From: Chlamydiota bacterium
GTDB taxonomy: Bacteria > Auribacterota > JACPWU01
Assembly: GCA_016196885.1 (NCBI GenBank)
Contig: JACPWU010000058.1
Span: 94 to 32,093, forward strand
DNA length: 32,000 nucleotides
Reading direction: 5' to 3'
Shown: positions 3,356 through 32,000 of the stretch, piece after piece
How the letters are laid out: every line of letters begins with the position of its first letter
Numbering within the stretch: the first letter of the stretch is position 1
Position numbers and translations under genes: made by a program
The notes under the pieces: generated by a model
Databases searched by the model: none
Seen by the model: only the letters and a program-made list of their open reading frames with translations
What the model was told of the DNA's origin: nothing

Positions 3356-4360
3356 GTGCAAAAATATTTGGTCACAGGCGGAGCAGGCTTCATTGGATCT
3401 AACTTTGTTCATTATCTCCTTTCCAAAAGGAAAGACTGCCAGGTGGTCAATTTGGATAAATTGACTTACGCTGGAAATTTAGAAAATTTGGCCGATTTAA
3501 AAATGGAGGCTCGGTATCAATTTGTGAAAGGGGACATTGCGGATGAAGCTTGTGTGGATCAGATTTTTAAATCTGGGATCGATGTCGTCGTGAATTTTGC
3601 GGCTGAGACCCATGTGGACCGCTCGATTGAAAATCCAACGGATTTTATCAAGACGGATGTCTATGGGACTTATGTCCTTTTGGAGGCGGCCCGCCGATAT
3701 GGCGTGAAAAAATTTATTCAGATTTCGACAGATGAAGTTTATGGAAGCATCGAAAAAGGCTCTTTCCGAGAGACCGATCCTCTGATGCCCAGAAATCCAT
3801 ATTCAGCGAGCAAGGCGGGGGCGGATCGCCTCGCCTATTCTTATTGGGCAACTTATCAATTACCTGTGGTTATCACTCGGGCCTCCAATAATTTTGGGCC
3901 TTATCAATATCCTGAAAAATTTATTTCTCTTTCCGTGACGAATTTGCTAGAGGGAAAAACCATTCCGATTTATGGCGATGGCCGAAATGTGAGGGATTGG
4001 CTTTATGTGGGGGATCATTGTGCGGCCGTTGATTTCCTGGTAGATCAAGGAAAGGATGGCGAGGTCTATAATGTTGCCGGAGGAAATGAAAAAGAAAATA
4101 TCGAGATTGCAAAAGAAATGGTGTGCTATTTAAAGGGTTCTCAAGATTCCATTCAATTTGTGAAGGATCGTTTGGGGCATGACCGCCGTTATTCCTTAAA
4201 TGCGGACAAATTAAAAGTCCTCGGCTGGAAACCAAAATCTTCATTTTTGACGGCTCTTCATGAGACCCTAGATTGGTACCAGAAAAATGAAGTTTGGTGG
4301 AAGAAGATCAAGTCGGGCAAGTTTAAACAGTACTATCAAAAACAGTATGAGCTTAGGTAG
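3356..4360 (+). CDS. rmlB: dTDP-glucose 4,6-dehydratase
   Basis: 334 aa. Carries TGGAGFIGSNF (Rossmann fold), the YSASKAGADRL catalytic YxxxK, and a DEVYG motif. GTG start. Confidence 0.92.
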   Translation: MQKYLVTGGAGFIGSNFVHYLLSKRKDCQVVNLDKLTYAGNLENLADLKMEARYQFVKGDIADEACVDQIFKSGIDVVVNFAAETHVDRSIENPTDFIKTDVYGTYVLLEAARRYGVKKFIQISTDEVYGSIEKGSFRETDPLMPRNPYSASKAGADRLAYSYWATYQLPVVITRASNNFGPYQYPEKFISLSVTNLLEGKTIPIYGDGRNVRDWLYVGDHCAAVDFLVDQGKDGEVYNVAGGNEKENIEIAKEMVCYLKGSQDSIQFVKDRLGHDRRYSLNADKLKVLGWKPKSSFLTALHETLDWYQKNEVWWKKIKSGKFKQYYQKQYELR

Positions 4361-5222
4361 ACAAAGGGTTTTGATATTGGGTGCCAACGGGATGTTGGGT
4401 TCTGATCTCGTTCAAGTTTTGAAAGGCGATTTTGAAGTTTTCCCTTTCAGTCATCACGAGTTAGATATCACTCAGGTCTCTGAAATCGAGAGAACTTTAA
4501 AAACGATTCGGCCGGCCATTCTTATCAATGCGGCTAGTTATACGAAGGTAGATGATTGTGAGACGAAAGAACCTTTGGCCCAGGCTGTGAATGGAGAGGC
4601 TGTGGGCAGTATGGCTCGGCTTTGTCAGGAACAGAACGTTTTTCTCGTCCATTTCAGTACGGATTATGTTTTTGATGGATTGAAAAGGACTCCTTATGTG
4701 GAAGAGGACAAGACCCATCCCATCAATGCTTATGGCCGATCTAAGCTCAAAGGCGAGGAGGCCATTTTCAAGAATTTAAAAAATTTTTTGTTGGTTCGAA
4801 CCTCGTGGCTGTACGGTTTAAAGGGCTCTAATTTTGTAGATAAAATGATAGAATTGGCTCGGTCTAATCCTGAAAAAGGATTGAGGGTGGTGGGTGATCA
4901 AGAGGGGTCTCCGACTTATACGAGAGATTTGGCGAAGGCGATCGTTTTTTTGTTGGGGCATCAGGCCAAAGGTCTTATTCATGTGACGAATTCAGGGATG
5001 TGCAGTTGGTACGATTTTGCGGTTCAAATTTTAAAAGTTGCGGGTCTTGGAAATGTTCCAATTCAAGTAGTGACGTCTGATCAATTTCGCAGTCCCACGC
5101 GTCGCCCTTTCTATTCTGTACTTTCGAATGCCCGGCTCGAGAAAGAATATGGTTTTAAAATGAGGCCTTGGCCGGAGGCTTTGGAAGAATATTTAAAGGT
5201 TCAGAAAGGAGTTCATCCATGA
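4347..5222 (+). CDS. rmlD: dTDP-4-dehydrorhamnose reductase-like (RmlD family SDR)
   Basis: RVLILGANGMLGSDL, NAASYTKVDDCE, FSTDYVFDG and YGRSKLKGE are RmlD hallmarks. I prefer the ATG at 4347 (14-nt overlap with rmlB) to the longest-ORF start at 4287. Confidence 0.88.
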   Translation: MSLGRQRVLILGANGMLGSDLVQVLKGDFEVFPFSHHELDITQVSEIERTLKTIRPAILINAASYTKVDDCETKEPLAQAVNGEAVGSMARLCQEQNVFLVHFSTDYVFDGLKRTPYVEEDKTHPINAYGRSKLKGEEAIFKNLKNFLLVRTSWLYGLKGSNFVDKMIELARSNPEKGLRVVGDQEGSPTYTRDLAKAIVFLLGHQAKGLIHVTNSGMCSWYDFAVQILKVAGLGNVPIQVVTSDQFRSPTRRPFYSVLSNARLEKEYGFKMRPWPEALEEYLKVQKGVHP

Positions 5223-26996: not shown

Positions 26997-28134
26997 GTAT
27001 AAGAGAATATTAACCTTAGATAAGTTTTCTCATGAGAGTTCTTTCTTGTGGGGACCCCGTCAAACTGGGAAGAGTACTCTGTTAGAGCAGCTTTTTCCTG
27101 ATGCGCCTTATTATGATCTTTTACTTTCAGATGTGGTCACTCGTTTCCAAGTGAAACCCTCGCTTTTAAGGGAAGAGCTTTTATCCAGTCCCCCTCACGG
27201 GCCAGTCATTCTCGATGAAATCCAGAAGGTTCCAGAACTTTTAGATGAAATCCAGTGGCTGATGACTAAGAAAAATATCCATTTTATTCTGTGTGGATCT
27301 AGTGCAAGAAAACTGAAAAGGACGGGAGCTAATCTTTTGGGAGGCAGGGCCATTCGGTATCAACTTTATCCTCTCGTGTTTCCTGAAATCTCTGATTTTG
27401 ATCTCATAAAGGCTTTGAATCATGGTTTGCTCCCACGTCATTATCTTTCTAAAGAGCCACAGGAACTCGTCGAGTCCTATATTGCCGATTACCTTCAACA
27501 TGAAATCGCTGCGGAGTCTCTTGTACGTAATCTCCCTTCCTTTCACCGCTTTCTTGAAGTGGCGGCTTTCAGCAATGGTGAGATTCCTGTTTTTAGTAAC
27601 ATTGCGTCAGATTGTGGTGTGAGCTCTCCCACCGTGAGGGAGTATTTTGAAATTCTACAGGATACTCTGATAGGCTCTTTTTGTCCGGCCTATCTGAAAC
27701 GGCTTAAGCGTCGTTTAATTCAGTCACCTAAATTTTATTATTTTGATGTGGGGATCGCAAATTTTCTTCTTAAAAGAGGTTTTATTCAATATGGATCGGA
27801 ATCTTTTGGGAGAGCTTTTGAACATTTTATCTACCAAGAAGTAATAGCTCATTCGCAATACTCTCGCAAGAAGTACCCTGTCAGTTATTGGAGAACTTCT
27901 TCAGAATACGAAGTGGACTTTATTCTGGGGGACGCCATGATTGCACTAGAGGTGAAAGGAGTCCCGCTGGTCAATTCAAAACACCTTAAAGGTCTTCAGA
28001 TGTTTTGCGAAGATTATGCAGTGAAAAAAGCTATAGTGGTTTCGCTGGATCCCCGGCCTAGAAAAATGGGTGACATTGAAATTCTTCCCTGGAAAAAATT
28101 TCTTGAAGCGCTTTGGTCTGGAGAACTTATTTAA
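26995..28134 (+). CDS. AAA_14 ATPase with DUF4143 C-terminal domain (PD-(D/E)xK nuclease-like motif visible)
   Basis: Walker A GPRQTGKSTLL and Walker B-like VILDEIQ. C-terminal YEVDFILGDAMIALEVKG has the D...E-x-K arrangement typical of restriction-endonuclease-fold domains. No SD precedes the ATG. Confidence 0.85.
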   Translation: MYKRILTLDKFSHESSFLWGPRQTGKSTLLEQLFPDAPYYDLLLSDVVTRFQVKPSLLREELLSSPPHGPVILDEIQKVPELLDEIQWLMTKKNIHFILCGSSARKLKRTGANLLGGRAIRYQLYPLVFPEISDFDLIKALNHGLLPRHYLSKEPQELVESYIADYLQHEIAAESLVRNLPSFHRFLEVAAFSNGEIPVFSNIASDCGVSSPTVREYFEILQDTLIGSFCPAYLKRLKRRLIQSPKFYYFDVGIANFLLKRGFIQYGSESFGRAFEHFIYQEVIAHSQYSRKKYPVSYWRTSSEYEVDFILGDAMIALEVKGVPLVNSKHLKGLQMFCEDYAVKKAIVVSLDPRPRKMGDIEILPWKKFLEALWSGELI

Positions 28135-28225
28135 ACATGATTTCTCACAAATTGAAACGATCGTCAGAAAAAGAGTAAGTGGGTCGAAGCGAGAGGGGGA
28201 ACTCAGGACAGGTGCAAATAAATTC

Positions 28226-28254
28226 TTGACAGTTTTTCAATTCTCATTTAGATT
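28226..28254 (+). promoter_or_regulatory. candidate sigma70-type promoter of the Fur-family gene
   Basis: TTGACA (28226-28231), 17-nt spacer, TAGATT (28249-28254). Confidence 0.5.
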
Positions 28255-28260
28255 CTATCC

Positions 28261-28281
28261 AATTTAGATTTAGTCTCAATT
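28261..28281. promoter_or_regulatory. candidate Fur-family operator (10-1-10 palindrome), autoregulatory position
   Basis: AATTTAGATT-T-AGTCTCAATT, with arms complementary at 8 of 10 positions. It lies immediately downstream of the -10 and shares architecture and sequence with the box at 28751-28771. Confidence 0.5.
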
Positions 28282-28283
28282 AA

Positions 28284-28730
28284 ATGAAAACTCAAACGGA
28301 TATGCCAAATCGGTTTACTTCATTTCTTGAGGATAGAGGTCTTAAGTTGACGTACGAGCGGAGATATCTTTTTGAAAAAGTCTCGCGTTTGAAAGGACAC
28401 TTTAATGCAGATTCTCTTTATGAGTCTCTTCAGAGAGACAAGGCTCGCATTGCTCGGGGGACGGTTTACCGGACCATTCCGCTTCTTTTGGAGAGTGGGG
28501 TCATTCAGAAGTCGGTAGGTGAGGGAAAAAGAGAGTTTTTCGAGAGCCAGACGGGAAAAGAGCATCACGATCATCTGGTATGTTTGAAATGTCATAAAGT
28601 GATTGAGTTTCACTCGGATGAGATTGAGAAGTTTCAAGATCAGATTTGTGAAAAATATGACTTTGAAATGGTTTTTCATGATCACCGAATGTATGGACAC
28701 TGCGGGAGTTGTAAGGAAAAAAAGAAGTAG
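28284..28730 (+). CDS. fur: Fur family transcriptional regulator (metal specificity unknown)
   Basis: wHTH region (RGTVYRTIPLLLESGVI), HHDHLVCLKCHKVIEF and a C-terminal CGSC (two CxxC pairs). The start could be the ATG at 28302. Confidence 0.85.
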   Translation: MKTQTDMPNRFTSFLEDRGLKLTYERRYLFEKVSRLKGHFNADSLYESLQRDKARIARGTVYRTIPLLLESGVIQKSVGEGKREFFESQTGKEHHDHLVCLKCHKVIEFHSDEIEKFQDQICEKYDFEMVFHDHRMYGHCGSCKEKKK

Positions 28731-28750
28731 GGAAATTTTTTTTAATTTTC

Positions 28751-28771
28751 AATTGAGACTCTGTCTCAATT
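28751..28771. promoter_or_regulatory. candidate Fur-family operator upstream of the OMP/FMN-bind/apbE operon
   Basis: AATTGAGACT-C-TGTCTCAATT, with arms complementary at 9 of 10 positions. It lies 22 nt upstream of the ATG at 28793 (RBS AAGGAGG at 28781-28787). Confidence 0.55.
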
Positions 28772-28792
28772 AGAACAAGAAAGGAGGATGTT

Positions 28793-29746
28793 ATGAGGTT
28801 TGAAAATAAGGTGAAGAAGGTTTATCGTGGGTTAGGATTAAAAATCTCTTTGTTTGCAATAGGGGTCTTGGGCTTTGCGGCATCTGCTTTTGCACATGAA
28901 AGTGTTTTCGCTTGGACATATACGACAGATTTGTTACCCAAAGGGAGATGGGAGATTGAGCATTGGACGACGGCTCGATTGGAAAAAGAGCATGGAACTT
29001 ACAACGTCGTTGATTTTCGTGAGGAGTTTGAGTACGGGGTCACAGATAATTTTGGTGTGTCCCTCTATTTGAACCATCATGATGTGAATGCTAAAGAGAG
29101 TGTTCCTCAAGAGGATCCCAATAACTCAGGGCATCGCTTGCCCGGAAGCTTTGAAACGGGAGGCGAAGACATACACGCGGATCATGATCCCTCTCTTCCT
29201 TTTGATTCTTATCATTTTGAATCTGTTTCGGTGGAACTTATTTATCGGATTTTAAGCCCCTATAAGGATCCAATCGGTTTGGCTTTGTATTTAGAGCCCG
29301 AGTTTGGGGATGAAGAGACAGAGATAGAATCAAAAATTCTTTTGCAAAAAAATTGGTTGGAGGATCAGTTGGTCTGGGCGCTCAACTTGAATTATGCACT
29401 TGAATTTGAAAAGGAGGAGGAAGGGGAATACGAAAGGGACGCCAAATTTGAATGGTTTACGGGGCTTTCGTATCGTTTTATTTCAAACTGGTCCTTTGGT
29501 TTAGAATTCTGGAATCATCATGAATTTGCGGATGCAACAGAGCATGAGCATTCTGCTTATTTTCTTGGGCCGACGCTGCATTATGGAGCCAAAAATTGGT
29601 GGGCATCCTTAGGATTTTTACATCAGCTTCCAATTGGACAGGCAATTTCCGAAGACAATAAAGAATTTGCTGAGCACGATGGCTATATTTTTGGCGATGA
29701 ACATGAAAAGTATTATATTCGCCTGAAGATCGGGATTAATTTCTAA
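28793..29746 (+). CDS. putative outer-membrane beta-barrel protein, His/Glu-rich
   Basis: Signal peptide (..ISLFAIGVLGFAASAFA/HE). Alternating amphipathic segments. C-terminus ..YYIRLKIGINF ends in Phe, which is OMP-typical. About 17 His by my count, often in HxH, HH or EH clusters. Confidence 0.55.
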   Translation: MRFENKVKKVYRGLGLKISLFAIGVLGFAASAFAHESVFAWTYTTDLLPKGRWEIEHWTTARLEKEHGTYNVVDFREEFEYGVTDNFGVSLYLNHHDVNAKESVPQEDPNNSGHRLPGSFETGGEDIHADHDPSLPFDSYHFESVSVELIYRILSPYKDPIGLALYLEPEFGDEETEIESKILLQKNWLEDQLVWALNLNYALEFEKEEEGEYERDAKFEWFTGLSYRFISNWSFGLEFWNHHEFADATEHEHSAYFLGPTLHYGAKNWWASLGFLHQLPIGQAISEDNKEFAEHDGYIFGDEHEKYYIRLKIGINF

Positions 29747-29756
29747 GAGGCACAAT

Positions 29757-30296
29757 ATGAAAAGGTTTGGGAAAACTTTAAGATGGTTGACAGTGCCTGG
29801 GATTGTCATTGTGATGGATGCTCCTTCTTATGCTGAAGTGTATTTAAGTGTGGAGCAAGCGCAGCAAGTCATTTTTCCTGGAGAAGGCTTCTCAGAAATA
29901 CCTTTACAATTGAGCAGCTATCAAAAAGCTGAGATTAAGAAGCGCTCTGGGATTGCAGTTCGAGATCGCGGGATGCGCGTCTGGAAAACAGGCAAAGGAG
30001 ATTTTTTGATTGTAGATACGGTGCTTGGAAAACATGAGTTTATTACCTATGCAGTGGGGATTCTTTCTGATGGAACGGTCCGTCAAATTGAAATCATGGA
30101 TTATCGAGAAACTTATGGTTATCAAATACGGGATGAGGTTTGGCGTAAACAATTTGTTGGGAAGAATGCACAATCTGAGTTAATGCTGGATAAAGATATT
30201 AAGAATATCAGTGGGGCGACTCTTTCGTGTCGTCACATCACAGATGGGGTGAAGCGACTGCTGGCAACTTATGAGACCGTCTTTCGAAAAAAATAA
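29757..30296 (+). CDS. secreted FMN-binding domain protein (ApbE substrate type)
   Basis: N-terminal signal sequence (LRWLTVPGIVIVMDAPSYA/EV) and a C-terminal FMN_bind motif DIKNISGATLSCRHI ([S/T]GAT flavinylation site). Confidence 0.8.
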   Translation: MKRFGKTLRWLTVPGIVIVMDAPSYAEVYLSVEQAQQVIFPGEGFSEIPLQLSSYQKAEIKKRSGIAVRDRGMRVWKTGKGDFLIVDTVLGKHEFITYAVGILSDGTVRQIEIMDYRETYGYQIRDEVWRKQFVGKNAQSELMLDKDIKNISGATLSCRHITDGVKRLLATYETVFRKK

Positions 30297-31128
30297 TCGG
30301 ATTAGAAGAGCGAGACCTTTGTTGGGGACTTTTGTTGAAGTGTCCCTCTTGGAATCTGAGTCTCAAAAGACGCAAGAAGCCATTGATCAGGCTTTTGAAG
30401 TGATTTATCAAGTTCATTGCTTGATGAGTTTTCACAATTCGATGAGTGATGTGTCGAGGCTTAACCGTGGGGCCTTTCAGGAACCGGTGAAAGTGCATCC
30501 CTGGACTTATGAAGTTTTGAAAAAGTCAGCGGAACTTTCTCTTTTAACAAAAGGTCTTTTTGATTGCACGGTTGCTCCTCAATTGGTTAAGTGGGAATAT
30601 TTGCCAGGACAGGTTGAAAAGAAGAGCAAGAGTTGGGGTTCTTACGAGGATATTAAATTTTTAAGTGCCCATAAAATCAGTTTTAGAAATCCCTTGATGA
30701 TTGATCTAGGAGGGATTGCCAAAGGGTTTGCAGTGGACCAGGCGGTGACCGTTCTAAAGTCAGCGGGAATGAAGAACGGTTCTGTGAATGCTGGAGGGGA
30801 TCTTAAAATTTTTGGTCGAAAAAATCAGCCTGTGTATGTGAAGTCTCCAAGTCGCCCGAGCGATCTTGTGTTAATAGGGGAAGTCAAAGAGATGTCTGTG
30901 GCAACTTCCTCCCATTATTATTCGAGAAAATATTTAAAGGGTCGTCAGGTGAGTTCCATTATGAATCCTCTCCAAAATAAACCTTGTCTCAAAAAATGGA
31001 GCGTTTCTGTTATGGCTTCCTCTTGCATGACAGCGGATGCCTTGACAAAGGTGGTGATGCTAGCTGGAGATGCTGCAAAATCATTTTTGGAAAAATATGA
31101 GGCACGGGCGGTGATTATTAGAAAATAG
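30271..31128 (+). CDS. apbE: FAD:protein FMN transferase (ApbE family)
   Basis: RPLLGTFVEVSL, MIDLGGIAKGFAVDQAV, NAGGDL and TADALTK are ApbE motifs. It overlaps the FMN-binding gene by 26 nt. No signal peptide or lipobox is visible. Confidence 0.88.
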   Translation: MRPSFEKNNRIRRARPLLGTFVEVSLLESESQKTQEAIDQAFEVIYQVHCLMSFHNSMSDVSRLNRGAFQEPVKVHPWTYEVLKKSAELSLLTKGLFDCTVAPQLVKWEYLPGQVEKKSKSWGSYEDIKFLSAHKISFRNPLMIDLGGIAKGFAVDQAVTVLKSAGMKNGSVNAGGDLKIFGRKNQPVYVKSPSRPSDLVLIGEVKEMSVATSSHYYSRKYLKGRQVSSIMNPLQNKPCLKKWSVSVMASSCMTADALTKVVMLAGDAAKSFLEKYEARAVIIRK

Positions 31129-31334
31129 GACTATGGAAAATGAAGTAACTCCCCCATCCCCTCTTGTTATGCGTTTTGTAGTCGCCCCATTTATGGGGCT
31201 GCCCGATGAATCGGGCGACTACAAAAAAACATAATGGGGAGGACTTTCATCCTCTACGATGATCTCGAAAGATCATTGGAATTAAACTAAGAGGGGAGAG
31301 ACTCTCCCCTTAGATAAGGGGAGTTGGAGGGGTT
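31129..31334. repeat. composite structured intergenic repeat (second copy of the TAACTCCCC...GGAGGGGTTA type element with a different internal module)
   Basis: 14-bp stem TTTTGTAGTCGCCC (31174-31187) / GGGCGACTACAAAA (31213-31226) encloses GCCCGA-TGAA-TCGGGC (31201-31216). Hairpin ATGATCT-CGAA-AGATCAT (31259-31276). The terminal module ACTCTCCCCTTAGATAAGGGGAGTTGGAGGGGTTA (31301-31335) is homologous to 13231-13268. Confidence 0.5.
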
Positions 31335-31829
31335 ATGGGTTGTTCCAGCACCATGAAAATTCCTAAAAAGCAAAGATCCATTCTATATATCAGCTTAATC
31401 ATTCTTTTTTTGTCCGGAGCGATTTGGTGGGGTGCCAACTTTTTGATAAAACCTGAAACAGAAATAGATAGCTTTATTTATACCTCTCGTTCCCTCAGTC
31501 TGGAAATTCATGGGGGAGTGGCGATGGTGGTTTTAATGGTTTTAGGATCTCTTATCCCAAATCATATTCTAAAATCATGGAGGGCCAAGTTAAATAGGAG
31601 AAGCGGGGTTCTTCTCATCACTGTTTTTGTCCTTCTCATTCTAACGGGATATTTTCTCTACTATGCAGATGAAAATTTAAGAAATTTTTCAAGCACCCTT
31701 CATCTTGTTCTGGGATTTCTTTTGCCTTTTTTTGTGATAGGTCATATTTTGAGAAGTCGCGCTTTTCGGCGTAAGGAGAATAAGAGGAGGGTCGGTCGTG
31801 TTAAAATACAAGAACGAGCTGTCTTATGA
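31335..31829 (+). CDS. 4-TM membrane protein with four intramembrane His (possible di-heme cytochrome b-like, DUF4405-like)
   Basis: 164 aa with four hydrophobic helices. His residues sit at both ends of TM2 (EIHGG...IPNH) and TM4 (LHLVLG...VIGH). The start may be the ATG at 31353. Confidence 0.55.
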   Translation: MGCSSTMKIPKKQRSILYISLIILFLSGAIWWGANFLIKPETEIDSFIYTSRSLSLEIHGGVAMVVLMVLGSLIPNHILKSWRAKLNRRSGVLLITVFVLLILTGYFLYYADENLRNFSSTLHLVLGFLLPFFVIGHILRSRAFRRKENKRRVGRVKIQERAVL

Positions 31830-31875
31830 AAATGGAACGGGTCTGGATCGTATATTTAGAAGTGTGTCCTTTTAA

Positions 31876-31965
31876 GAGGAGGCGGGTCCTGTCCCTCCTC
31901 ACCCAGCAAGGTAGGTTTTTCTGCCGGTGGCAGAAAAACCTTCCGCGGTAGTAAATGTTATTTTT
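31876..31965. repeat. structured intergenic repeat, second copy of the family seen at 13101-13170
   Basis: GAGGAGG (31876-31882) / CCTCCTC (31894-31900). Perfect hairpin GTTTTTCTGCC-GGT-GGCAGAAAAAC (about 31915-31939). 31898-31965 aligns with 13101-13170 at roughly three-quarters identity by eye. Confidence 0.45.
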
Positions 31966-32000
31966 CGTTTATCAACTGACGGCACAGAGGTTATAGCCCC

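Follow-up and report, generated by a model that had tools for sequence, protein, structure and literature searches.

A probable lineage-specific Fur box at a fur gene and the adjoining flavin/cytochrome operon of a Candidatus Auribacterota genome

What binds two nearly identical palindromes that lie in front of and behind a Fur-family regulator gene, and to which signal would the regulator respond? The palindromes occur in a 32,000-nucleotide stretch of a genome deposited as Chlamydiota bacterium (GCA_016196885.1, contig JACPWU010000058.1, positions 94 to 32,093; hereafter the window, with coordinates counted from its first letter), the second of them immediately upstream of an operon that begins with an outer-membrane protein gene. 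Our comparative analysis suggests, with a probability of about 0.8, that they are operator sites, a Fur box, of the Fur encoded between them and represent a lineage-specific version of the Fur 7-1-7 site. We infer that Fur itself would bind these sites and, from the gene context and the conserved metal ligands, that its effector would be iron. The autoregulation mechanism is most likely ordinary, as in textbook Fur, and the operator sequence is most likely undescribed in the searchable literature.

Operator-like palindromes and their conservation

Direct reading of the window located both palindromes where the preliminary description had placed them: site 1 (operator O1b), AATTTAGATTTAGTCTCAATT, at 28261-28281, and site 2 (operator O2), AATTGAGACTCTGTCTCAATT, at 28751-28771. 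Compared with AATTGAGACnnnGTCTCAATT, site 1 has two mismatches and site 2 has none; a third match in the window, with three mismatches at 3502, is unrelated, and shuffled windows held 0.03 matches at three or fewer mismatches, with none of 100 shuffles reaching three. The pair was also returned by a repeat finder as a 23-nt direct repeat, 490 bp apart. Site 2 is a perfect inverted repeat with 9-bp arms and a 3-nt spacer (9-3-9), and the symmetry of site 1 is 8/10. A position matrix iterated on the fur-proximal regions of related loci (the clade matrix, described below) scored O1b at 27.0 bits and O2 at 23.9 bits, and added a weaker third copy, O1a (CATTTAGATTCTATCCAATTT, 28245-28265, 14.2 bits), which the preliminary description had missed. 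O1a lies 16 bp upstream of O1b, shares 5 bp with it and overlaps the -10 hexamer of the promoter. Scores above 10 bits occurred in the 32-kb window at these three places only, simulated windows contained 0.1 sites above 14 bits, and no partner sites were found at 16 bp on either side of O2, the lone copy in the interval that separates fur from the outer-membrane protein gene.

The arrangement of the sites relative to the promoter is compact. The promoter TTGACA-17-TAGATT (28226-28254), already recognized in the preliminary description, matched 10/12 positions in a consensus scan and was the best promoter-like site of the region, with the -35 hexamer at 28226-28231 and the -10 hexamer at 28249-28254, both on the forward strand, the latter inside the left half-site of O1a. 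Site 1 begins 7 nt past the -10 hexamer and ends 3 nt short of the fur ATG (28284), covering the likely transcription start. The end of site 2 is 21 nt from the ATG (28793) of the outer-membrane protein gene and 11 nt from GGAGG, and no terminator was detected between fur and that gene. The gene upstream of fur, on the same strand, encodes an unrelated AAA_14/DUF4143 ATPase.

Three close relatives, retrieved via their Fur proteins (loci L001, L003 and L004), have a copy of the motif directly behind fur, ahead of the following gene, but what follows differs: the same DUF6662-FMN_bind-ApbE-cytochrome operon in L001; hemP, then DUF6662 and FMN_bind, in L003; and cupredoxin-FTR1 in L004. In L001 and L003, a ferric-type ABC transporter is divergent from fur. 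Conservation upstream of orthologous operons, on which the preliminary description had made its reading depend, was found at both places in L001, L007, L008/L003 and L010/L004, whose Fur proteins are 62-80% identical to that of the window. O2 is kept in L001, L007, L008 and L010 despite diverged flanks, and at the position orthologous to O1a these four loci have stronger copies. In an alignment of the five loci, TTGAC (invariant), the -10 hexamer and two operators are conserved, whereas the sequence 5' of the -35 hexamer is unalignable, a pattern which, judged by sequence comparison, is that of a phylogenetic footprint. A run of six to eight T just 5' of O2 (28735-28750 in the window) is likewise invariant in the window, L001, L007, L008 and L010, where the intergenic flanks diverge; the operator matrix does not account for this run, which could be an UP-like or curved-DNA element.

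A wider set of 80 loci was assembled with an alignment of 42 clade members as the query, each species being represented by a single genome. The clade matrix converged on the consensus AATTnAGAYTwARTCTnAATT, in which T4, G7, A8 and their mirror positions are practically invariant, while position 5/17 is unconstrained (G in the window; in the rest of the clade A, C or T). Sites above 8 bits were present in 42 of 70 fur-proximal regions. All 64 sites of at least 17 bits in approximately 450 kb of loci had coordinates close to fur, as read from the coordinate list, a count that is partly circular because the matrix was trained on fur-proximal regions. As a check on this circularity, the matrix was rebuilt from the two window sites alone; across 69 clade loci it gave, at 12 bits or more, 52 sites in 25 kb beside fur versus 5 in 313 kb elsewhere (odds ratio 130, p = 5e-53). 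The preliminary description had proposed such a two-site matrix as a means to define the regulon genome-wide; here it was applied to these 69 loci, where its sites concentrate beside fur. The centres of upstream sites lie at a median distance of 42 nt from the start codon of fur, and tandem copies are spaced by 16 bp (21 cases) or 17 bp (6 cases), the overlap being the outer AATT. The motif carriers next to orthologous fur genes are metagenome-assembled genomes (MAGs) of Candidatus (Ca.) Auribacterota, Omnitrophota and Bdellovibrionota. In a Nitrospirae MAG (L077; Fur 38% identical), a 24-nt element with AATTGAGAC lies at 293-316 and 583-606 (also at 818 and 943), recurring about 290 bp apart at 2-2.7 kb upstream of fur.

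The genes behind the sites point to iron. In site-bearing loci, the gene after fur encodes a TonB-dependent receptor (6), FTR1 (5), FeoA (2), or hemP or DUF6662, accounting for at least 15 of 22 cases; further genes beside sites include ExbB/TonB, an FTR1-FtrD-YHS fusion, FMN_bind-ApbE-cytochrome and the ferric-type ABC transporter. In site-less loci, the next gene is mostly PAP2, NUDIX or HAD. No znuABC-type, nickel or catalase/ahpC genes were found behind the motif in relatives. The predicted regulon, as deduced from these neighbourhoods, thus comprises iron-acquisition genes, and gene context is the strongest argument on what the regulator senses.

The same association emerged when the search started from the motif rather than from Fur. 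An exact scan of metagenome contigs with AATTNAGAYNNNRTCTNAATT, from which 80 loci among the matches listed were considered, was noisy, with many matches inside open reading frames of AT-rich DNA, and only matches in G+C-rich contigs or beside iron or Fur genes were informative. At least four Fur-family genes stood beside a site: those of L139 (42% identical, 64% G+C), L125, L116 and L094, the last belonging to a different subfamily. At least three outer-membrane protein/FMN_bind operons were recovered: L139, with the order Fur-FTR1-ApbE-unknown-FMN_bind-four-His protein; L097, in which two sites are followed by a Porin_O_P-like gene, FMN_bind, PepSY_TM and ApbE; and L137, with porin-FMN_bind. 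Among the matches listed, sites also preceded FTR1 (65% G+C), a BFD-like gene, an HmuY-like gene and rubrerythrin. By our own estimate, AATTNAGAYNNNRTCTNAATT would occur by chance at about 2e-11 per position at 65% G+C; a chance origin of the matches in G+C-rich contigs is therefore unlikely, and the box would be used beyond the sequence-defined clade. Its predicted users are the Fur clade of Ca. Auribacterota, Omnitrophota and Bdellovibrionota together with more distant Fur proteins of other uncultured lineages, some of them G+C-rich. The idea of an autoregulated Fur-family repressor controlling the downstream operon, advanced in the preliminary description, is supported by the recurrence of the motif at the same two places in orthologous loci, by the enrichment beside fur and by the recovery of Fur genes and outer-membrane protein/FMN_bind/ApbE operons from the motif alone. 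In L094, a metagenome contig of 57% G+C, a perfect palindrome (AATTGAGACTAAGTCTCAATT) lies 59 bp before a Fur-family gene (4567-5052) whose product is 26% identical to the window Fur and has no HHDH motif; a different Fur subfamily may use the same box.

The regulator and its box among known Fur systems

The fur gene (28284-28730, forward strand) encodes a protein of 148 aa that matches PF01475 over residues 18-135 with 102 bits, against a gathering cut-off of 23.1. Its closest relative, from a Ca. Auribacterota MAG, is 80% identical, followed at 49-66% by proteins from MAGs of Omnitrophota and Bdellovibrionota; the source is taken to be an uncultured bacterium of the Planctomycetes-Verrucomicrobia-Chlamydiae (PVC) group. 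Among solved structures, the nearest are without exception ferric Fur proteins, from Vibrio cholerae (2w57, E = 8e-23), Campylobacter jejuni (4ets), Escherichia coli (8j6w) and Magnetospirillum gryphiswaldense (4raz). Residues H39, E87, H94, H95, D96, H97, E115 and H132 align with V. cholerae H33, E81, H87, H88, D89, H90, E108 and H125; grouped as H39/E87/H95/H97 and H94/D96/E115/H132, these regulatory ligands are invariant among the 42 clade members, as is a structural Cys4 zinc site formed by two CxxC pairs (C100, C103, C140 and C143). Among the NCBIfam models, ferric Fur (PRK09462) ranked first with 89.9 bits against an equivalog cut-off of 146, PerR came next (73.6 and 47.9 bits against 180 and 200), Bacillus-type Fur scored 71.7 bits, below its cut-off, and Zur (37.9 bits against 167) and Irr (36.9 bits against 170) were far behind. 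The preliminary description had suspected a non-canonical paralog with an unknown effector; with all Fur metal ligands present, the best family and structure matches to ferric Fur and iron-uptake genes behind the motif, that suspicion was not supported. No Shine-Dalgarno sequence precedes the annotated start, ATG at 28284, the predicted transcript leader measures only about 22 nt, and a second in-frame ATG occurs at 28302; the orthologs L007 and L010 have AGGA/GGAG before their fur starts. The actual start could lie a few codons away.

The clade box fits the 7-1-7 scheme (and also 9-1-9) as TnAGAYT-n-ARTCTnA with AAT/ATT flanks and an invariant G at -4. Its half-site, TGAGACT in site 2, matches five of the seven positions of the classical Fur half-site TGATAAT and differs at positions 4 and 6. 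When these two are compared with the half-site of the dFUR-box of delta-proteobacteria, TGAAAAT (PMC545781), and that of the M. gryphiswaldense Fur (MgFur) crystal operator, TGCAAAT (PMC4506495), all four share T at -7, A at -3 and T at -1, whereas position -4 is lineage-specific, with G only here, and a pyrimidine at -2 likewise occurs only here. The window contained no classical Fur 7-1-7 site at two or fewer mismatches, and its sole match to the classical 19-mer, with five mismatches, lies at 1120, far from fur. Neither a PerR box (TTATAATnATTATAA), a Zur box nor a dFUR-box was present in the window, and no Irr iron control element (ICE) at two or fewer mismatches was found near fur. The divergence from classical Fur, PerR and Zur boxes noted in the preliminary description is real; relative to the classical Fur box, it resides at positions -4 and -2.

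With the classical Fur box (E. coli, GATAATGATAATCATTATC; Bacillus subtilis 7-1-7, TGATAATnATTATCA), the clade box has in common an AT-rich dyad with a one-base centre, T -7, A -5, A -3 and T -1 (and G -6 in the window's own sites), overlap with the promoters of fur and iron-uptake genes, and several dimers per operator. It differs in having an invariant G rather than T at -4 and C/T rather than A at -2, in not conserving G at -6 across the clade, and in the stacking of sites: classical 7-1-7 sites overlap by a 6-bp shift (PMC545781), whereas successive copies in the clade are offset by 16-17 bp and have nothing but the outer AATT in common. There are precedents for lineage-specific Fur boxes (PMC545781). 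The dFUR-box (WTGAAAATNATTTTCAW) of metal-reducing delta-proteobacteria (Rodionov et al. 2004, PMC545781) is such a lineage-specific motif, likewise derived from comparative genomics and located upstream of fur and feoAB; it is also a 7-1-7 dyad occurring as tandem boxes, and it precedes hypothetical porins, including Porin_O_P-like ones as in L097. It has A at both -4 and -2, where the clade has G and Y, and Fur proteins from Deltaproteobacteria-labelled MAGs are 36-41% identical to the window Fur and come without the motif.

The closest view of how such a site might be read comes from the MgFur-feoAB1 operator (PDB 4rb1/4rb3; AATTGCAAATCATTTGCAATT in a 25-mer; PMC4506495), whose outer AATTG...CAATT is identical to that of site 2, with 13 of 21 positions identical when counted by hand. 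Structures of MgFur on DNA show Tyr56 in contact with thymines, a guanine recognized by Arg57 and a narrow minor groove recognized by Lys15 (PMC4506495). The window protein retains equivalents of all three residues: Y62-R63, which correspond to the base-reading Tyr-Arg, are invariant in the clade, and K21, which corresponds to the minor-groove Lys, is at least 90% conserved. The inner half-sites differ (GCAAAT versus GAGACT), and Arg57 reads G at -6, whereas the invariant G of the clade is at -4; this guanine is most likely read by the conserved Arg in a shifted position. The Irr ICE (TTTAGAA-N3-TTCTAAA, TTTRGAAYNRTTCYAAA; PMC1698941) resembles the clade box in TT at -8/-7, A/R at -5, G at -4 and A at -3, and half-sites of O1a and O1b such as TTTAGAT are one base off TTTAGAA; the difference lies at -2 and -1, and in the regulator, which has HHDH and four Cys ligands, falls far below the Irr model cut-off and is not alpha-proteobacterial. 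Searches of the literature returned no description of this box consensus or of Fur boxes in the PVC group, Omnitrophica or Bdellovibrio, a TTGAGAC query being swamped by primer sequences.

Several observations weigh against reading the palindromes as autoregulatory operators of this Fur. In about 28 of the 70 clade loci fur lacks a nearby site, and autoregulation is thus not universal. Compared locus by locus, the best proximal and best distal scores did not differ significantly (p = 0.07), which we attribute to the roughly 40% of loci without a site and to distal regions being an order of magnitude larger. Some MAGs (CAZOOM, CAYGIT, CAZKMJ and CAYWRU) contain two or three members of the Fur clade. 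All NCBIfam Fur models remained below their equivalog cut-offs, the regulator being too divergent for equivalog status. The G at -6, the base read by MgFur Arg57, is not conserved across the clade, so base readout must differ in detail. Finally, nothing convincing as a sigma-70 promoter for the outer-membrane protein gene was found upstream of O2, a point that concerns the mode of O2 action.

Splitting the clade by recognition helix into subfamilies with and without the motif was rejected, since the helices are practically identical and both kinds of locus are interspersed; from this likeness, a missing site would reflect locus context, with fur not beside its target, rather than a different specificity. 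Clade paralogs on separate contigs of Omnitrophota-type MAGs (L025/L064/L067, L017/L021, L030/L057 and L049/L070) have the box upstream in some cases and not in others.

Three other explanations were weighed, of which the least remote keeps the sites as operators of this Fur-family protein and changes the signal to manganese (Mur), zinc (Zur), nickel (Nur) or peroxide (PerR), with the operon serving that function. The 73.6 bits of the better PerR model are close to the 71.7 of Bacillus-type Fur, with all models below cut-off, the box is not a classical Fur box, and a rubrerythrin gene, a typical PerR target, follows one metagenome site; moreover, one copy of the downstream module (L209) adjoins an Nramp transporter and a DtxR-type repressor fragment. 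We nevertheless regard a non-iron effector as improbable, since the genes behind the motif are FeoA, FTR1, TonB-dependent receptors, hemP and ExbB/TonB, with none of znuABC, nickel or catalase/ahpC type, the top PDB relatives are ferric Fur proteins, and the Zur and Irr models reach only 37-38 bits. PerR proteins have Asp at the ligand equivalent to V. cholerae E108; residue 115 of the window protein is Glu, invariant in the clade.

Regulation of fur by a different transcription factor encoded elsewhere, which would bind the palindromes, is very unlikely. The many clade fur genes without a site would fit it, but a site accompanies a Fur-family gene in more than 40 loci of several phyla, and in at least four loci found by the motif alone, while the neighbouring genes include no second regulator family that recurs; in their dyad symmetry, their AT-rich flanks, the single invariant G of each half-site and their overlap with the promoter, the sites match Fur-type operators (PMC4506495). 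Less probable still is that the palindromes act as RNA hairpins, whether in termination, attenuation or transcript stabilisation, or that they represent copies of a small repetitive mobile element. Site 2 can indeed form a 9-bp transcript hairpin just before the ribosome-binding site, yet the sites fold no better than shuffles (z = -0.86 for site 2 and +0.89 for site 1), and no U-tract or terminator was detected, on which grounds the hairpin or terminator reading was rejected; site 1 also pairs poorly. What is conserved is bases (T4, G7, A8 and their mirrors) and not pairing, position 5/17 often being non-complementary, as with T5/C17 in site 1, and the copies are confined to fur neighbourhoods.

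The operon under O2 and its predicted regulation

With the palindromes taken as Fur operators, regulation at this locus may be envisaged as follows. When iron is plentiful, metal-loaded Fur dimers would bind the overlapping O1a and O1b, which together span the -10 hexamer, the transcription start and the fur leader, so that RNA polymerase would be blocked and fur would be autoregulated. A further dimer would occupy O2, 21 nt before the outer-membrane protein gene. Because no terminator follows fur and no good promoter precedes the outer-membrane protein gene, O2 would act either by occluding a weak internal promoter or as a roadblock to read-through from the fur promoter. When iron is scarce, Fur would leave the DNA and the operon products, a DUF6662 barrel, a flavinylated periplasmic FMN (flavin mononucleotide) protein, ApbE and a four-His membrane cytochrome, would be made, probably forming a reductive iron-uptake chain. 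How O2 would repress, and what the operon does, are both deduced here from site positions and gene content.

All four genes of this module (28793-31829) are on the forward strand. The first (28793-29746) encodes the predicted outer-membrane protein, with a DUF6662 match (PF20367, 59.8 bits) and an N-terminus that appears signal-peptide-like by eye; a DUF6662 gene also stands behind fur and O2 in L001 and L003. The second (29757-30296) encodes an FMN-binding protein (PF04205, 49 bits) with the flavinylation motif SGAT at residues 152-155, taken as secreted from an N-terminal hydrophobic stretch read directly from the sequence. It is followed by the gene for the ApbE flavin transferase (30271-31128; PF02424, 172 bits) and by that for a small cytochrome b561/DUF4405-like membrane protein (31335-31829; PF01292, 32.4 bits against a cut-off of 30.1). 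This last protein contains exactly four His (59, 77, 123 and 137), which are aligned and conserved in homologs from eight loci of several lineages. One cluster here unites ApbE, an FMN_bind protein of the [S/T]GA[S/T] type and a membrane protein as electron-transfer partner, the combination of an ApbE-dependent extracytosolic flavinylation system.

The module extends well beyond the window. The family of the FMN-binding protein gave 7,200 matches at E <= 1e-8, the top 120 being at least 55% identical, and four members on long contigs (L207-L210) all belong to a DUF6662-FMN_bind-ApbE-small membrane protein cluster, with no ApbE called in L209. A word-index search for homologs of the cytochrome b-like protein returned three matches only; its homology to the partners in L139 and L207-L210 was established by pairwise BLAST and alignment. 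The module was located in the window, L001, L007, L139 and L207-L210, some of the sources being labelled, for example as Ca. Binatia. In L207, Fur-hemP-FTR1 stands in front, with three weak sites at 16-bp steps; in L209 the module is beside Nramp and the DtxR-type repressor fragment mentioned above, and in L210 it is near a ferric-type binding protein. The window-type box was not present at the modules of L208-L210, which have other palindromes instead, and the module would therefore be older than its regulation by this box. In L208 (55% G+C), a perfect palindrome of another kind, TGCTATTGA-TTC-TCAATAGCA at about 4033-4053, lies upstream of the DUF6662 module just past a TTGACG hexamer, and L209 has GAATGATACTGCTTCTCAATA at the equivalent place. 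These palindromes may be operators of other iron regulators for the DUF6662 module.

The nearest described relatives of this module are the flavinylation-linked assimilatory iron reductases (PepSY-like, MsrQ-like and P19/FTR1-associated) surveyed by Meheust et al. in 2021 (PMC8238504), whose main text ties flavinylation systems to iron assimilation. As far as that text describes them, they likewise combine ApbE, a secreted SGAT FMN-binding protein and a membrane electron-transfer partner, and are linked in the genome to iron uptake and Fur; L097 represents their PepSY_TM version under a window-type box. The window system departs from them in its partner, a small four-His cytochrome b561/DUF4405-like protein, and in the DUF6662 barrel within the module. 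The main text of the survey does not contain PF01292, PF14358 or 'cytochrome b', and the searchable literature contained no mention of DUF6662. The four-gene module is thus absent from the main text of this catalogue, and we consider it more interesting than the box itself.

Taken together, these results allow a broader but tentative proposal, which we consider somewhat less than even in likelihood: an unrecognised class of Fur operators, with an invariant G at -4 and tandem dimer sites at 16-17-bp steps, would serve several deep lineages, among them Ca. Auribacterota of the PVC group, Omnitrophota, Bdellovibrionota and a number of uncultured bacteria rich in G+C, and its signature target would be the conserved module of four genes, in which an outer-membrane barrel (DUF6662 or porin) is joined by a flavinylated FMN protein of the periplasm, ApbE and a small four-His cytochrome b, acting as an uncatalogued two-membrane reductive iron-uptake system. 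The position matrix can be used for iron-regulon reconstruction in metagenome-only phyla (Auribacterota, Omnitrophota and much of Bdellovibrionota), in which scans with the E. coli Fur box would miss everything. The box also provides a data point on the drift of Fur specificity, position -4 of the 7-1-7 half-site being T, A or G by lineage, and the apparently Fur-controlled flavin/cytochrome b/outer-membrane module is a candidate iron-acquisition system.

A minor feature concerns the 206-nt spacer between the ApbE and cytochrome b-like genes of the window (31129-31334). An Rfam search of 28000-32000 returned no credible family, for this spacer or elsewhere in that range. The two genes are only 4 nt apart in L001, and the spacer would therefore be an insertion; it folds into a multi-hairpin structure of -93.1 kcal/mol (z = -7.7 versus shuffles) that includes the long hairpin GTAGTCGCCCCATTTATGGGGCTGCCCGATGAATCGGGCGACTAC.

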